32,000 nucleotides of DNA, taken from positions 2,220,001 through 2,252,000 of the forward strand of contig NC_000964.3 in assembly GCF_000009045.1 (NCBI RefSeq). The letters run 5' to 3'. Positions 1,525 through 8,722 of the stretch are shown here, piece after piece (position 1 is the stretch's first letter; each line of letters starts with the position of its first letter). The translations under genes and the position numbers were made by a program. The notes beneath the pieces are model-generated. The model did no database searches. It was not told where the DNA came from and saw nothing but the letters and a program-made list of their open reading frames with translations. This stretch comes from Bacillus subtilis subsp. subtilis str. 168 (GTDB lineage Bacteria > Bacillota > Bacilli > Bacillales > Bacillaceae).

Positions 1525-1986
1525 AGAAGGAGATGTTGATTTGAAAAAGAGAACCTTAGTTAAAGACAAGTTGCTGACTACCTTTCAAGGCTGAGATGGT
1601 CAGTAAATACAAGGGTTATATATGAAGATATGATATAGTAATGTAAGTGGATAAGAATAAATTATGTCTTCGATTCCCTCGGATTCGTTATAAATACGAT
1701 TATTTTTAATGAATGGTTATTCATTTTTAAATTGAAAAACAATTTATTTTTTAAAAATTAATTCTTGTGTTTGACCTGGAATTATGATAGCATTGGTGCA
1801 GACCTGCCCAAGTCATTAAATGCACGTATAATGTTCCTTATACACGCATTACAATACCAATATATGGGGGTATATTTACATCTAATGGTAAAATTAAGGG
1901 AACAGATGTACCCATAGCACTTCCATTTCCACACCCTATCCAAATTTTCATTTTCCTAATTCCACCTCAAAATCACCCTTTTTCAC

Positions 1987-2213
1987 ATCGTAATCGCTAT
2001 CGTAAAAGCCTTAAATATCAACATTTTCCCCTCTTCAAATTTACTCGATTTCTTCAATATTTAGATAAAGCAACCACTTTCCCCTACTCTCACTTATGTT
2101 TTACGATCGTTTATCCCCTAATCACCATTCGATACAGCAAATCTCCTTATGTTTACTGGCTTTTTAAACTCTTTAATATTTTTTACGATAAGCATGTTTT
2201 TAGATTACGATAA
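1987..2213. repeat. Cluster of five TTACGAT / ATCGTAA heptamers (extended form TTTTACGATA) upstream of the yonP-yonO promoter
   Basis: ATCGTAA at 1987-1993 and 1999-2005 (12-nt spacing). TTACGAT at 2101-2107, 2183-2189 and 2205-2211 (last two 22 nt apart). The flanks recur: TTTTACGATA three times, and ATCCCC follows two copies. Confidence 0.4.
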
Positions 2214-2284
2214 TCCCCCCTTCTCTAAATGCTTCAGAATTCACCTCTTAACCTGGAGCTATTAACACACTAGCGAAAAAACAA

Positions 2285-2313
2285 TAGACAAATACAAATA
2301 ATATGTATATAAT
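2285..2313 (+). promoter_or_regulatory. SigmaA-type promoter for yonP-yonO(-yonN)
   Basis: TAGACA (2285-2290), 17-nt spacer, TATAAT (2308-2313). This is about 25 nt upstream of the strong SD GTGAGGAGG of yonP. Confidence 0.55.
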
Positions 2314-2339
2314 AAATCCATAAGTGAGGAGGTGAGATA

Positions 2340-2534
2340 ATGCAAAAGGATTCAGAGAAAGTAACGTACATGTTTAGTAATTTAATTGGATTTTTAGAGA
2401 CTGCTATTATTGAAGGAACTGCTTCACAAGAAGAAAACACTCTTTATGAGGACTATAAACTATTTGGAACAATCGATAAAAAGAGCTATACATATAAAAA
2501 TCTTGTACATAAGTATCTAAAAAGCGATTATTAA
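2340..2534 (+). CDS. yonP: Small acidic protein of unknown function, 64 aa, first gene of the yonO unit
   Basis: Strong SD (AGGAGGTG) 6 nt before the ATG. Sits directly upstream of yonO on the same strand. Confidence 0.75.
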   Translation: MQKDSEKVTYMFSNLIGFLETAIIEGTASQEENTLYEDYKLFGTIDKKSYTYKNLVHKYLKSDY

Positions 2535-2573
2535 ATCAAAAAATATGCATAAAAGTAATAAGGGGAGAATTTA

Positions 2574-5093
2574 TTGAAAGGAAAAAAAGACGGCCTAAAT
2601 AAACAAGTACATATTTACAGTATTGACACTTCTGCTTTTTATAATGATCAAGAAAACAAATTACATAACAAGATTTTAAAATCATATAGGTACAGAGATC
2701 ATCTCAGAAAACTTGAACATGTTGATAAAAAACATAAGAAGTACATAACGCAAAGGATTATTTCCTTAAAAGAAAAGCTTTATAACGCCTTTAACGATCA
2801 TAATCAAATAAGAACACTTAGAACAGATTCTCTGAAAGATAATAATGTGATTTCATTATTTGATTCAGTCTTAACTCGAACGCTGGGAATCAAAGAAAAC
2901 TCTCTCTCTGAAGAGATCATGGTTGTCCAAACTTATCACTTTCAAATTTTAAGGGACATTATTGATAAAGGATTCATACATAACAATGAGAAATACGTTT
3001 ATTTCACTAGCAGTGCCGGTCAAATAAGAACAAAAAAATCTTGTTTTATCAAACAAAGCACCTTAGATAAGTATCAAAATGCTTTAACTTGTGGTCTTAG
3101 TGTGGAGCATATCAATGCTCAAGGTGGAAGCAGCATAAACAAATGGAATAGCTACATGGCCTTATCGAATAGCGCCAGCAGTTCATGGGAAATTGATATT
3201 GATAAAGCAATTGTCGTAAATGACTTAGAAACAAATGTTTCCAGCCTAGTTGATTATATTGACCGGGATACATATGAAATCACACGTAAGATTATGGATA
3301 TTCCTATAGAACATACAGATGGTTGTGGAATGATGCTCCCTAGTTTGAGTCAGAAAAGCTTTATGGTCAGATTACCTTGGGTTAAGGGTCTACTTGTTCC
3401 ATTTGACTTTAGAAAGTTTGCTGAAAAACACAGTTCATTTATAGTTAAAGACGTCTACGGTAAAGAATGGGACATTATTAAAGATGATATCCAAATAATT
3501 TTTACGAAAAGCCAGTTTAAGATGTGGAAGTACTATGATTCTTGGGATGATTATCGCTATAAATTTAAAAAGTATGGATGTTTAGGAGCTAAATTAAATG
3601 AAGAAGATCCATCTGTTGAGGGAAAACTGACTTACCAGATGCTACAAACACTCACGGATATCACAGATGAGGAATTGAAACAAATCAGCTCAAAGACTGT
3701 TAGTGAGATTACTCAATTAGGCACTGATAAAGAAACAATGATGAAAGTTTTAGGGGCTACCGAGAAAAATAAACATAAGACAAGCCTTCAAGAAGCTCTA
3801 CTAATATATCCTGAGCTGCTAAATGATGATCACACCAAAGAAATCATTAAGAATAAGAAGAAGAGTATGATTAAGGACGCCAAATCAGGAAAATTACTTG
3901 TCAGTGACGCCCGGTATACATATTTATGTCCTGACCTATATGCTTTTTGTGAAAGATTGTTTCTTGGAATTGAGAGTCCAAAAGGACTACTTTCAGGAAG
4001 CGATGTCCATTGTTCTTTATATGATGAAGGGTATATTGATATCCTCCGCTCCCCTCACCTATTCAGAGAGCATGGTGTTAGGTGGAACAAGAAAAATGAG
4101 GAATATGAAAAGTGGTTCATTACCCCAGGTGTTTATACCAGCATTCATGATCCGATATCCAAGCTGCTGCAGTTTGACAATGACGGGGATAAGGCCTTAA
4201 TTATTTCTGATGAGCTAATCGTCAATATTGCCAAGCGTAATATGGCGGACATCGTTCCTTTGTATTATGAAATGTCTGTAGCCCAGAAACAAGAGATTAA
4301 TAGCAGAAACATCTATGAAGCACTAACTCTTGCTTATGGAATCAATATCGGGGAGTACAGTAACAACATCACTAAGATATGGAACAGTGACAATATAAAC
4401 CTGGACGTGATCAAATGGTTATGCATGGAGAATAACTTTACTATCGATTTTGCAAAAACCTTATTCATGCCCACCCGCCCTGATCACGTTGATGAGAAAA
4501 TCAAAGATTACATAAAAAATAAAGTGCCCCACTTCTTCATCAATGCAAAGGATAAAGAAGAACATAGCGTAGAATCGATTAATGAAAGTACAGTAAATAA
4601 GTTAGACTCCATTATCCCTTCTGACCGAATCAACTTTGCTGCAGTTGCAGGAAAATTTGATTACCGCTTCTTACTCAAAAACAAAGAGATTAAACTTAAT
4701 GAAGCCGTAATAAATGAATATAAACGTCTTGATCGAAATAAAAAATGGCTTATGAATGATGAAGAAGCTAAACCAGGACAAAAACTTTATGTCTATAAGA
4801 TTATCAAACAAAAACTATTGGAAATACATAATGATGACGGATTTATTACAGATGTATTGGTAAAACATCTATATAAGAAAAAAAGTAAATACAAATCGAC
4901 ACTGTGGGAGTGCTTTGGCGATATTGTACTGGAGAACATTAAGCATAATTTAAAGACCTTTAAAGGATGCTGTATTTGTGGAAAAGCTTTTAAGCCAACA
5001 TCTAACAAAGCGAAGTACTGTCAGTCTTGTGGAAAGAAAAAAGAACGTGACAAATACAAAAAATATAACAAAAAGAGAATTAACCACCGTTAG
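2574..5093 (+). CDS. yonO: Single-polypeptide two-barrel DNA-dependent RNA polymerase (YonO type), 839 aa
   Basis: TTG start with SD AAGGGGAG. Metal-binding motif [11 protein letters not shown] (DNDGD encoded at 4176-4190). C-terminal CxxC..CxxC zinc ribbon plus a Lys-rich tail. Size and context match SPbeta YonO as I remember it. Confidence 0.9.
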
Positions 5094-5336
5094 AAAGTGC
5101 CTTGAGCCTTACTCCCCCAAGGTGTACAGCGATTTTACCGAAAAAAACTTCAACAAAAAAGTGTCTTTATCCCTTGGTGCTACTGGGTTGAGAGCACTTT
5201 TGGAGATAATCGTCATAAGGGAGACAGAAAGCTAATTTCCACATAAAAGGGCTAGTACGTTTCCCCCGTCTATATAAAAGACAATCTTTATTGTTCATTT
5301 AGAATAAATTTAATAATACTTAGGAGGAAATTGATT

Positions 5337-5615
5337 ATGAATAAAACAGAACTAATCGCTAAAGTGGCAGAAAAACAAGGGGTATCTAAAAAAGAAGGAG
5401 CTCCCAGTGTCGAAAAAGTCTTTGACACTATTTCAGAGGCATTAAAAAGTGGAGAAAAAGTAAGTATTCCTGGTTTCGGAACATTTGAAGTTCGTGAACG
5501 CGCAGCTCGTAAAGGGAGAAATCCCCAGACAGGAGAGGAAATTGATATTCCGGCTACAAAAGCACCTGCATTTAAGCCAGCAAAAGCACTTAAAGACGCA
5601 GTCAAAGCTAAATAA
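5337..5615 (+). CDS. yonN: HU-family DNA-binding protein (phage paralogue of Hbs), 92 aa
   Basis: [12 protein letters not shown]...[44 protein letters not shown] is nearly collinear with bacterial HU. AGGAGG lies 8 nt before the ATG at 5337. The TTG at 5331 is too close to the SD. Confidence 0.95.
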
Positions 5616-5774
5616 TCAGTTAATGAGGACGACAGGAAAGGCTACCTGCACGCTTTGTCACAAAGAGCTTATGCTCCTAAAAGTGGCAGAGTTGGAAGTT
5701 ATGGAGGAAATTGTCGACCTCCCCTCTTTTCGCTTTTCATCTTCAACTCCGGGTTAATTAATTATAGTTATTTA

Positions 5775-7270
5775 TTTATGGCATGGGGGTGCCGTCAATA
5801 ATTAGTTGATTACTGATATTTGGGATATCAGTTCTCGACTAATGTTCATTTATGAAGGTAAAGACTAATCTAAATGAATATTAGTGGAGATTCCTCTCCA
5901 GTGTGAACTAGCTTTTCTCGATTAAACAATATCTACTCCCTTCTTTTCTGTATCATTCTGACACAAAACTGCGGCTGGTCATTGCAGTTAGTCGGATAAT
6001 AGTCATTTATGAGGGTGCGAGGTTAACTCGGATGTCTGTATCTTCAGGAGACAGATAAATGGCTATTATCGGGCTAAACATGTCGGTAAGACCTTTGCTA
6101 CTCAAGTTTTTTATGTAGGGTGAATCCCATCACAGTCTTACTATGGGTGACATGTATCCCTGAATATTAATTGCGGTGTACTGCTTCGGCTTACACTTAG
6201 GGAATGTAGATGCGTCTCCCTTCCCTTTAAATAATGCCCTTGTAAGCTTCGATGCTTATTATGCGGTCAACAAAATTTTTCCGGGTAAACGAGGCTTTGA
6301 AATTACATACCCTCGTAAAATAAGTGATATGGTTTTGGGCGCTTGATCACCGCTGTCATTTCACAGAAAAGGATTATTTTCGGTCTTGCCTTTTCCTTTC
6401 ACTTAGTAACATATTCGCTACTTTTCCTTCAAGAAACTTACCTTTCCCATGCACATACCTCCTTACACGGGTCAGAGAAAACTGTGCAAAATAAATGGCG
6501 AGAGTTTGAGACGCTTTGTTTCTCAATAAGGCGTGTAACCTGACAAGAGAGACTGAAAACGCCATTGAGAAGGCTTATAATGGGTCTTTCCTTCTCATTA
6601 TTGGTGTTTCGCCACCATAATGTGTCGAGGTTTAGAGTTAGTATTTCATTGTCTGATCGAGAGTAGCCGATTAATCCCGCGTGGGGGACACTAAAGATAC
6701 CGCGATACGTCCAGCTTTGGGATTCCTTCCATTGCCGCTACTAATCAAGGCTTCACTGTGAATTCAGAGATTTTACACAGTTCTTAAATGAATTAGCTCA
6801 TCTGCCATGTGCAGAAGGAGAATCAGTTTTCGCACAGCGATTACCGGTTTATATGCTCATGTACCATGATGTACAAGGAGTTCCTGAAGACGTTATTTTG
6901 GCGTCTTTTGATATTTCGACTTACTTATAGTTTGTCAACTGCAAAGGTTTCAGTCGCTGAACCCGTAATCAGCGTAATCCCTGTCGATCTGAAGGCTTGC
7001 GTCCCAACGTGAGCTAATGACGTAGGTGAAACGGGGTTAGAATGTAATCAGAACAAGGTCATCTAAATCGTTAGAAGGCCTTTTTGTGCTTGCGTTTTAC
7101 TGATCAGCCGGAATGTGTTTACGAGCCTTCCGGTACGCAAGTTATCAATAATCTCCTTCGGGCGTTTCCCCAACGCCTATCCGACTTATCTTTCATCTCC
7201 TTTATATCCCCTTCTCGGACGTTACCGATGCTTCGGATCATCGGGCTTCCGAAGGAGCTTATTGTACGTA
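5775..7270 (+). ncRNA. Candidate large structured noncoding RNA, or long structured 5' leader of the late operon (class unassigned)
   Basis: About 1.5 kb with no ORF that has an SD. G+C is 42-55% in hand-counted samples against about 30% in neighbouring genes. More than 15 helices, many nested or abutting, including 15- and 16-bp stems and C(UUCG)G loops. T:G pairs make sense only for a + strand RNA. No terminator before the yonK SD. Confidence 0.55.
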
Positions 7271-7296
7271 AATAGAAAATTATTGGAGGAATTTAA

Positions 7297-7488
7297 ATGG
7301 CAAGCAAAAAAGTACATCAAATTAATGTTAAAGGCTTTTTTGATATGGACGTAATGGAAGTTACTGAACAAACTAAAGAAGCTGAATACACATATGATTT
7401 CAAAGAAATTCTTTCAGAGTTTAATGGAAAAAATGTTTCAATTACTGTAAAAGAAGAAAATGAACTTCCTGTTAAAGGCGTTGAGTAA
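7297..7488 (+). CDS. yonK: Small acidic protein, 63 aa (YonK family), first ORF of the late block
   Basis: Strong SD TTGGAGGAA 7 nt before the ATG. Sequence and size fit the remembered SPbeta YonK small-protein family. Confidence 0.8.
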   Translation: MASKKVHQINVKGFFDMDVMEVTEQTKEAEYTYDFKEILSEFNGKNVSITVKEENELPVKGVE

Positions 7489-7504
7489 GGAGATGACTGA
7501 CTGA

Positions 7505-8722
7505 ATGATCGATCCTGTTCAAACTAAGCGTCACTCAGATGAAAACCTTAAAGAATGGAAAATAAGAATCTGCTCTAATAAAGACATTTATAATCTAAAC
7601 TGGGAAGAAATCAAAGAGTTAATCAACAAGGAAACTGGTGAATCTAAAGGTGAATCAGCTTATAGAAAATGGTTCAACAACTTCATTGAAGGAGTTGAAT
7701 ACCAACGAGAAAGGTCAGATGAATCAAATAATTCTCTCCTTGAATTGGAACTGAAAAAGGTTGAAATCATGGAAGAGAGAAAAAAGCTTCAAGCTGTAAA
7801 GCATGAAATACATAAAAACACACGCGTCAAAGGCCGAACAGAGCTGCTATATGAAAATGTAACTGAAGCAATTGAGAAAGTAGGTACTCTCCCTCCCCCT
7901 TCCTTCTATCCATTAAATAAGAACGAAAGAAAAAGAGCTGCTGTTCTAGGGTTTGGAGATGAACACTTCGGGAAGCAATTTAAAAGCAACAACAATGAAT
8001 ACAACGAACAGATTTATTTGCAGCGTATGAATCAGATTCTTTCTGAAACTGTTGAGTACATTCAAAAAGAAAATTTAGATGAGCTGGTCGTGTTAAATGG
8101 TGCTGACAGTGTTGAAGGTATGGCATTGCGCGTATCGCAATTAACTGCCCTTCAGTACGGGTTTATTGACCAAGTGATAAAATACTCTAGGTACAAAGCT
8201 GAATGGCTTTTAGAACTTTCTAAGCACGTCAAAATTAAGTACATACATATCCCTTCTGCAAATCATACTGAACTAAGATTACATAATACAAATCGCTCGG
8301 AAATGCCTAAAGAAGATGTAGAGCGTATTATAGCTACTTATATCCATGACGTACTCAAAGACAATGAGCGAATTGAAGTTCCTTTATACGACGAAGGAAT
8401 TGTGGATTTTAAATTACTTGAATTTGAAATTGTCGCATGTCACGGACACCAGATTAAAAACAAAAAGAATGCCATTCGTGACATCTCACAGATGAAACGA
8501 AAATTCTACGATTACATGTACATCTCCCACTTCCACCACGGAAACATGCTCACTGTAGGTGAAGCAGCCACTCATAATATCCAAGTTATACAACTCCCTT
8601 CTGTAATGGGTTCCGATGAATACAGTGACAGCTTAATGACAGGTGCCAAAGCTGGAGCAAACCTTTCAATTTATGAGTCCGGTAAAGGTCGGATTATTCA
8701 ATACGATTACATATTAAATTAA
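7505..8722 (+). CDS. yonJ: Calcineurin-like metallophosphoesterase (Mre11/SbcD-style motifs) with an N-terminal helical extension of about 130 aa, 405 aa total
   Basis: Ordered motifs GFGDEHFG, NGADSVEG, SANHTE, ACHGHQ and SHFHHG match the metallophosphatase signature D-x-H / GD / GNH(D/E) / GH / GHxH. Confidence 0.8.
   Translation: MIDPVQTKRHSDENLKEWKIRICSNKDIYNLNWEEIKELINKETGESKGESAYRKWFNNFIEGVEYQRERSDESNNSLLELELKKVEIMEERKKLQAVKHEIHKNTRVKGRTELLYENVTEAIEKVGTLPPPSFYPLNKNERKRAAVLGFGDEHFGKQFKSNNNEYNEQIYLQRMNQILSETVEYIQKENLDELVVLNGADSVEGMALRVSQLTALQYGFIDQVIKYSRYKAEWLLELSKHVKIKYIHIPSANHTELRLHNTNRSEMPKEDVERIIATYIHDVLKDNERIEVPLYDEGIVDFKLLEFEIVACHGHQIKNKKNAIRDISQMKRKFYDYMYISHFHHGNMLTVGEAATHNIQVIQLPSVMGSDEYSDSLMTGAKAGANLSIYESGKGRIIQYDYILN

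Follow-up and report, generated by a model that had tools for sequence, protein, structure and literature searches.

The yonP-yonO-yonN locus of the Bacillus subtilis prophage SPbeta probably comprises an early polymerase operon controlled by the master repressor MrpR and, behind yonO, a conserved signal that marks the start of the region transcribed by the phage RNA polymerase YonO. We analysed a window of 32,000 nucleotides of the B. subtilis 168 genome (2220001-2252000; genome position minus 2220000 gives the window positions used below). Sequence comparison showed that window 2200-7600 is phage SPBc2/SPbeta at 100% identity, in which the genes are annotated as yonP, yonO and yonN. The YonO gene of Bacillus phage SPbeta has been published, and the polymerase operon with its basic logic is already known. 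What we add is a family-wide motif behind yonO, a hairpin conserved in position and a natural deletion in phage SPbetaL2, none of which is in Forrest et al. 2017. YonO is the only studied member from a bacterial virus among the single-chain relatives of cellular RNA polymerase, and has been discussed as a model of the multi-subunit polymerases' ancestor; how such a minimal, sigma-less enzyme finds and opens its promoter has been an open question since 2017. Its promoter sequence and cofactors were left open by Forrest et al. 2017 (PMC5467207), and no later paper defining a YonO promoter was found in our literature search. SPbeta is the sole phage with a mapped YonO start, which is here joined to a family-wide signal, a hairpin conserved in shape and a natural deletion variant. 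Short, concrete templates and mutants can now be defined for purified YonO and YonN, both of which already exist.

The comparative sample consisted of about 80 YonO loci (80 or 81, depending on the count) from related prophages, and the counts are therefore not counts of independent events. Of 81 loci across the Bacillota (Bacillaceae, Paenibacillaceae and Clostridia), about 50 carry the motif TAATnGTCnTAAGGGAG behind yonO. Upstream of an HU gene, 22 YonO loci from the same groups shared the consensus TAATnGTCn(T)TAAGGGAG; the motif profile was built from these 22 instances, picked by eye, and the statistics therefore use only the other 58 loci. Among these, 23 of 35 motif matches (22 loci) lay 50-500 nt after yonO on the same strand, with 1.7% expected there (binomial p 1.8e-32, yonO ends being the ends of tblastn matches), and a second profile round brought about ten more loci with a post-yonO motif. 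The matches include Lachnospiraceae and Oscillospiraceae loci in which no HU gene follows, which indicates that the signal travels with yonO and not with HU. The G-rich part of the motif pairs with a downstream C-rich part, with compensatory variants (GGAAGA/TCTTCC and GGGAAAAGGC/GCCTTTTCCC), and a T-run often follows. Used as a genome-wide promoter predictor, the motif profile was too unspecific and was discarded. The motif was also rejected as the ribosome-binding site of a conserved small open reading frame (ORF): SPbeta lacks a suitably spaced start codon, and the small ORFs after the motif in other loci are unrelated or only three codons long.

In SPbeta, the 243-nt spacer between yonO and yonN matches the genes in its degree of conservation, up to and including B. 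pumilus. The yonO stop codon is followed at once by a hairpin (5097-5125, + strand; CCTTG...CAAGG), annotated as a stem_loop in NC_001884, whose sequence is kept as far as B. pumilus and to which CCCTTGATACATAAGGG+T hairpins in distant loci are related. A second, terminator-like hairpin (5176-5201, +; GGTGCT...AGCACT with a TTTT tail) was missed by a simple terminator scan, its loop being too long for the scan rule. Behind it lies the SPbeta post-yonO motif, copy C (5205-5225, +; GAGATAATCGTCATAAGGGAGAC), which is nearly invariant in SPbeta-like phages and B. pumilus and whose GGGAGAC pairs with GTTTCCC at 5259-5265. The first-pass annotation, made from the letters of the window, had treated yonP, yonO and yonN as a single unit. 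This is doubtful for yonN, since two hairpins (one with a T-run) and a motif conserved throughout the family separate it from yonO, so that yonN seems to open the following unit. The locus is accordingly redrawn as an operon under the MrpR/SPBRE switch, with yonN probably part of the next transcription unit. In a Paenibacillus prophage (L022:8700-9070) two tandem copies of a hairpin-plus-motif unit (CCTTGrTAyATAAGkCTTT..GATAATGGTGTTTAAGGGAGAG) follow yonO, a parallel to the duplication in SPbeta.

The published YonO-dependent start of the late operon lies at window position 5998 on the + strand (genome position 2225998); it is the single YonO start reported by Forrest et al. 2017 (PMC5467207), whose primer-extension primers bracket 5877-6119. 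This position is 383 nt beyond yonN, inside the hairpin-rich DNA that the first-pass annotation had nominated as a candidate recognition region. The nomination was sound in place; the late start had been mapped already in 2017. Among diverged SPbeta-like phages and prophages, similarity sets in sharply some 30 nt before 5998 and extends to about 6095. The conserved element around the start, copy B (5988-6098, +), contains the invariant GTCGGATAAT, the motif TAATAGTCATTTATGAGGG (5997-6015) and a long helix, P1, that encloses two small hairpins. In the alignment 96% of the P1 cells are paired, with three compensatory pairs and with G-U pairs on the + strand. Several pairs, one of them compensatory, lie upstream of the mapped 5' end, and P1 is therefore not simply the 5' structure of that RNA. 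A covariance model of copy B (R1) gave 54 strong matches in SPbeta-like contigs and no second strong copy-B-like match in the 168 chromosome, where R1 is single copy. The GATAAT at 5995-6000 was rejected as a sigmaA -10 box, as the mapped start falls inside it.

Immediately before the invariant GTCGGATAAT, a hairpin of 7-8 bp at 5967-5989 (+) is fixed in position and variable in sequence, ending 8-9 nt upstream of the published start. It is folded at this position by 27 distinct contexts with five unrelated stem sequences and loops of 3-7 nt: SPbeta/Goe14 (related to each other by G-C to A-T compensation), G007, L176, B. pumilus and the copy-A/SPbetaL4 type, with shuffle p values per stem type from 0.08 to <0.001. 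Copy A (5813-5913, +) is a tandem paralogue 160 nt upstream of copy B, with the hairpin CTGATAT-TTGGG-ATATCAG, then TCGACTAATGTTCATTTATGAAGG and a long stem; R1 matches it at 5831-5913 (E 6e-5), also in relatives. Copies B (GGATAATAGTCATTTATGAGGG) and A (CGACTAATGTTCATTTATGAAGG) are diverged versions of the post-yonO motif, and GGATAATAGTCAT..GAGGG of copy B resembles GAGATAATCGTCATAAGGGAG of copy C. A single copy, an A/B hybrid, is present in phage SPbetaL4 and in one Bacillus genome. Phage SPbetaL2 (L104, OQ921342.1) has a natural 554-nt deletion of window 5618-6171 (at 3727-3735 of L104), which joins the HU stop codon straight to window 6172 and removes both hairpin elements and the published start. 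No R1 match was found anywhere in the 134-kb SPbetaL2 record, and copy C is kept there. If the assembly is right, an isolated and sequenced phage can thus do without the element at the mapped start.

At the other end of the locus, the yonP-yonO operon is preceded by a sigmaA-type promoter (2285-2313, +) with TAGACA at 2285-2290, a 17-nt spacer and TATAAT at 2308-2313. It matches at 11 of 12 positions and was the top sigma-70-like site in a promoter scan of 1800-7600; as the scan overall gave fewer sites than shuffled sequence, it is the context of the site that supports the promoter call. Spanning the spacer and the -10 box is the SPBRE repeat ACAAATACAAATAATATGTATATAAT (2288-2313), the operator of the master repressor MrpR (YopR), which as a 15-26-mer occurs about ten times in the prophage at up to two mismatches. 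The SPBRE repeat was identified as the MrpR site, and the yonP promoter is a peak of MrpR in chromatin affinity purification sequencing (ChAP-seq) (Kohm et al. 2023, PMC10516654). The promoter thus belongs to the known SPBRE/MrpR-controlled set, the repeat being seen here and the binding coming from the literature (PMC10516654), and we found no difference that would set the operon apart from this lysogeny switch. YonO protein was seen only after induction with mitomycin C (Forrest et al. 2017, PMC5467207). Expression by host RNA polymerase from this promoter, as the first-pass annotation had it, fits the literature.

Taken together, these elements suggest the following course of events, which we regard as probable. 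Its first part is established in the literature and agrees with our results. In the lysogen, MrpR sits on the SPBRE operator that covers the spacer and -10 box of the near-consensus sigmaA promoter (2285-2313); upon induction it leaves the promoter, host RNA polymerase makes the yonP-yonO RNA, and YonO transcribes the late genes from the mapped start at 5998. The second part is inferred from the comparison. The yonP-yonO transcript is probably ended, at least partly, by the two conserved hairpins after yonO, and the motif TAATnGTCn(T)TAAGGGAG just behind them would mark where YonO-dependent transcription begins. In most relatives this region would open with the HU gene, and yonN would not be the last gene of the operon transcribed by the host. 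Within the SPbeta lineage the signal appears to have been duplicated beyond yonN (copies A and B), each copy after a hairpin and before a 1.3-kb untranslated leader. YonN plausibly helps the sigma-less polymerase to open or bend DNA, without being a universal partner.

A more specific proposal, which we put forward as possible rather than probable, reads the ~20-nt signal TAATnGTCn(T)TAAGGGAG as a family-wide promoter or initiation signal of YonO. In this one joint claim, the HU gene would be the first transcribed by YonO and its product would aid opening, the intervening terminators would stop host RNA polymerase and not YonO, and the late genes of SPbetaL2 would run from the post-yonO copy alone. 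The unpaired, sequence-conserved TAATnGTC and its fixed place after the polymerase gene favour recognition as DNA. The T7-type strategy follows the same logic, in that host RNA polymerase makes the phage RNA polymerase, which goes on to transcribe late genes from short, specific promoters, and the first candidate signal for the phage polymerase comes directly after the polymerase gene. T7-type promoters TAATACGACTCACTATAGGGAGA carry a 5' GGGAGAC...GUUUCCC stem-loop, and the T7/T3 promoter has the form ..TATAGGGAGA. The SPbeta motif TAATCGTCATAAGGGAGAC with its GGGAGAC/GTTTCCC stem resembles this promoter plus leader as a lead only, since the polymerase folds are unrelated, the SPbeta motif is about 5 nt shorter and the mapped start at copy B lies 14 nt upstream of GGG instead of at GGG. 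Several findings weigh against the course of events outlined above. A start at copy C or copy A is undocumented, only one start being reported by Forrest et al. (PMC5467207). The start mapped at copy B coincides with the motif's 5' edge, so that the motif is itself transcribed and suits an element acting at the RNA level as well as, or better than, a promoter. R1 had no matches in the distant YonO loci, nor any outside the B. subtilis and B. pumilus groups. The motif profile is weak (130 matches in the 168 chromosome at E<200, copy C being about the 16th), and it is therefore position alone that gives the motif its significance. Moreover, 50 of 80 YonO loci have no HU gene within 6 kb, the related prophages share ancestry, and synteny alone is no proof of a functional link.

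The transcribed position of the motif leads to an explanation that we consider rather doubtful, in which the motif and its copies act as RNA, either as a Shine-Dalgarno-like 5'-proximal stabiliser (STAB-SD type) whose accompanying 5' stem-loops would shield the long late transcripts from RNase J1, or as a leader or attenuator, and the true recognition sequence of YonO is something else, such as the upstream hairpin. With the start at 5998 upstream of the motif, the motif is in the RNA; in Paenibacillus loci the same purine box, AAGGGAG, acts as a genuine ribosome-binding site of HU genes; a TCTCCC further downstream pairs with GGGAGA, with compensatory variants and often a T-run after; and P1 of copy B shows G-U pairs and compensatory changes on the + strand. 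However, TAATnGTC is conserved in sequence without a conserved pairing partner in copy C, the P1 pairs upstream of the mapped 5' end, one of them compensatory, cannot form in that RNA, and a pure RNA stabiliser would need no fixed place directly after the polymerase gene, as is seen in about 50 loci. The hairpin before the start could instead be recognised by shape, as the first-pass annotation suggested by citing phage N4: the hairpin 8-9 nt before the start and its counterparts at copies A and C would be extruded from supercoiled DNA and stabilised by YonN/HU. The precedent is apt to the extent that a position-conserved hairpin does precede the start, and five unrelated stems all place a 7-8 bp hairpin in one register ahead of GTCGGATAAT, with a hairpin also before copy C and copy A. 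As at the promoters of N4 virion RNA polymerase, it is shape and position just upstream of the start that are kept, not sequence, and the accessory DNA-binding protein SSB of N4 would have a possible counterpart in HU. HU proteins favour distorted DNA. The N4 enzyme reads a hairpin in the template strand, whereas the G-T pairs of the SPbeta stems on the non-template strand become A-C mismatches on the template strand, so that these wobble pairs favour the non-template strand or RNA. The stems and loops (7-8 bp and 3-7 nt) are also longer than the 5-7 bp stem and 3-nt loop of N4, YonO does not belong to the T7/N4 type of enzyme, the stability of the SPbeta hairpin by itself is unremarkable (z -1.0), and the hairpins before copy C look like ordinary terminators. 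YonN does untwist supercoiled DNA (PMC3258159). With this polymerase and these hairpins the locus does not fall within the N4-type class, although it may be analogous in function, and we hold an N4-like hairpin promoter to be quite improbable.

It is also possible, if somewhat unlikely in our estimate, that yonO and the HU gene are neighbours through inherited synteny and have no functional tie. YonN would then serve the compaction, replication, recombination or packaging of phage DNA, and YonP would be an unrelated early gene, for example a host-takeover factor. The 50 loci without a nearby HU gene would fit this explanation, as would the synteny of the yonJ exonuclease and yonK, the different families of small upstream ORF in each lineage, and the behaviour of YonN as a non-specific HU in vitro (PMC3258159). 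Against it, in three families HU adjoins yonO even where YonO identity falls to about 44%, HU stays in the neighbourhood despite a changed gene order (loci L043, L046, L047 and L076), and the conserved motif lies exactly between yonO and the HU gene. We retain the MrpR-controlled polymerase operon followed by a signal for the YonO-dependent region as the favoured explanation.

yonN (5337-5615, +) encodes an HU-family DNA-binding protein (Pfam PF00216 Bac_DNA_binding, E 1.8e-36, residues 3-92) that is 66-68% identical to host HBsu (66% over 71 aligned residues) and scores below the cut-offs of the NCBIfam HU and IHF equivalogs. YonN is thus classed as a paralogue within the HU family and not as the orthologue of any named subunit. 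Phage SPO1 encodes the HU homologue TF1, which prefers hydroxymethyluracil DNA and represses early promoters of host RNA polymerase. Both TF1 and YonN are phage copies of the host HU family encoded beside transcription genes, whereas YonN, at 66-68% identity to HBsu, so far behaves as a non-specific HU. Purified YonN untwists supercoiled DNA like HBsu (PMC3258159), which makes it plausible that YonN may help to open promoter DNA. In 24 of 80 loci an HU gene follows yonO at 160-413 nt, and six more have one elsewhere within 6 kb; HU is a frequent, not an obligatory, neighbour of yonO. The first-pass annotation was incomplete or outdated on three points: the late start had been mapped in 2017, the yonP promoter is the MrpR-bound SPBRE operator, and YonN had been purified and found to untwist DNA. 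Its interpretation was thus partly supported, being largely right and partly outdated.

yonP (2340-2534, +) encodes 64 aa of PHROG 20387, a family of unknown function, with relatives only in close Bacillaceae prophages. The small ORF upstream of yonO belongs to at least three unrelated families (11 Lachnospiraceae, 6 Paenibacillus and 5 YonP-like). YonP was therefore rejected as a universal partner of YonO, and as a lineage-specific protein it is unlikely to be an obligatory subunit. In the Lachnospiraceae (L061-L082, e.g. L081:54-290), yonO is preceded by a conserved small protein (..HTTFGGVIYPSDFNT..ASRIAQDxRFD..), and in Paenibacillus by a small acidic 'YYDG' protein; both occupy the place of YonP without detectable similarity to it.

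yonO (2574-5093, +) encodes 839 aa from a TTG start, the same TTG at which the yonO cloning primer of Forrest et al. 2017 (PMC5467207) begins, and is 100% identical to SPBc2 yonO, which bears out the first-pass assignment of this ORF to YonO. The protein is the very same, without difference, as the YonO of SPbeta in that study, a processive DNA-dependent RNA polymerase whose template-dependent RNA synthesis was shown biochemically, which is essential for plaque formation and whose deletion silences 37 late genes (Forrest et al. 2017, PMC5467207). All features listed by the first-pass annotation were recovered where it had placed them, namely the promoter, yonP, yonO with its DNDGD loop, zinc ribbon and Lys-rich tail, and the HU-like yonN. 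The catalytic metal-binding loop is DNDGD (4176-4190, +; D535, D537 and D539, within FDNDGDKA); Forrest et al. 2017 (PMC5467207) list an Asp-to-Asn mutagenesis primer pair for yonO. The C-terminal CxxC...CxxC zinc ribbon (4968-5030, +; C799, C802, C816 and C819) is followed by a Lys-rich helix in the AlphaFold2 (AF2) secondary structure. An alignment of 63 homologues from 62 other genomes (43-69% identity) shows no substitution of the three catalytic Asp, of G538 or of the four Cys.

The AF2 model of YonO on the 63-sequence alignment reached a predicted local distance difference test score (pLDDT) of 91.1 and a predicted template-modelling score (pTM) of 0.84, superseding a poor earlier AlphaFold model from 17 close homologues (pLDDT 59). 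Its top 21 Foldseek matches in the PDB were all plant RDR2 or fungal QDE-1 (E 6e-19 to 5e-13, prob 1.00; alignments of ~800-900 columns, TM 0.41-0.57), and bacterial beta-prime subunits reached only E 0.05-1. The call of a two-barrel polymerase of the QDE-1/RDR (cellular RdRP-like) branch holds for the model as a whole-length Foldseek match; the first-pass annotation had proposed this kinship and suggested the fold comparison that now agrees with it. By sequence, neither YonO alone nor the 63-member profile gave a meaningful match to a PDB chain. Pfam RdRP (PF05183) matched 7 of 17 YonO homologues (56-85% identity to YonO; best E 3.2e-14), and several database homologues bear a precomputed PF05183 match; YonO itself had no match at E<=1. 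No named family for YonO or YonP was found in Pfam, NCBIfam or PHROGs. Eukaryotic QDE-1 (2J7N, 7Y7x) and RDR2 (7W82, 7EU1, 7RQS) share with the YonO model the fold, the single chain, the two double-psi beta-barrels and the DxDGD loop. However, sequence identity is 11-14%, YonO misses the Pfam RdRP model, and YonO acts as a transcriptase of double-stranded phage DNA rather than in RNA silencing and has a C-terminal zinc ribbon.

The yonO gene is split in phi3T, SPR, Goe11/14, BUCT083, several SPbetaL phages and B. rugosus, at the invariant I624-D625|F626-A627-K628, which corresponds to window 4449 (codon 626); SPbeta yonO has no intron. The insert measures 330-400 nt, or about 1290 nt with a 300-aa GIY-YIG ORF (L101:2394-2792, L001:3752-5040, L102:2554-2952, L103:2394-3682). 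A weak full-length match to group I introns (E 0.011, below the gathering score) supports an intron. The two halves of the split gene are annotated as separate genes in databases.

Upstream of the operon, an additional motif match, TAATGGTAAAATTAAGGGAAC at window 1883-1901 (+, the strand of yonO), lies between yonR and yonP close to the published packaging start and is kept in B. rugosus (L003:4513). Either chance or a YonO-type signal in front of the polymerase operon could account for it. The TTACGAT heptamers noted in the first pass at window 1987-2213 are within the same gap. The packaging start was located between yonR and yonP (bioRxiv 2021.11.22.469490), the gap being the site at which the packaged genome is opened according to that preprint (10.1101/2021.11.22.469490), and the heptamers may have a packaging role rather than a role in transcription.

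No Rfam family matched 5090-6100, even at E<=1, and a 'skipping-rope' RNA, annotated after hup in phage Goe14, was set aside, as Rfam 15 gave no match to it in the window or in Goe14. In the late leader, the parts 6172-6596 and 7133-7296 are common to all SPbeta-like phages examined. The pieces 6168-6216, 6434-6593 and 7154-7282 are recognisable even in B. pumilus, and none of these stretches matches an Rfam family. The sole Rfam match of the window is a DUF3800-VIII RNA (RF03075, 47.5 bits) at 6975-7040 (+), within the 1.3-kb untranslated late leader, and this piece of about 60 nt is found again on other contigs in related Bacillus genomes, in the manner of a mobile element.

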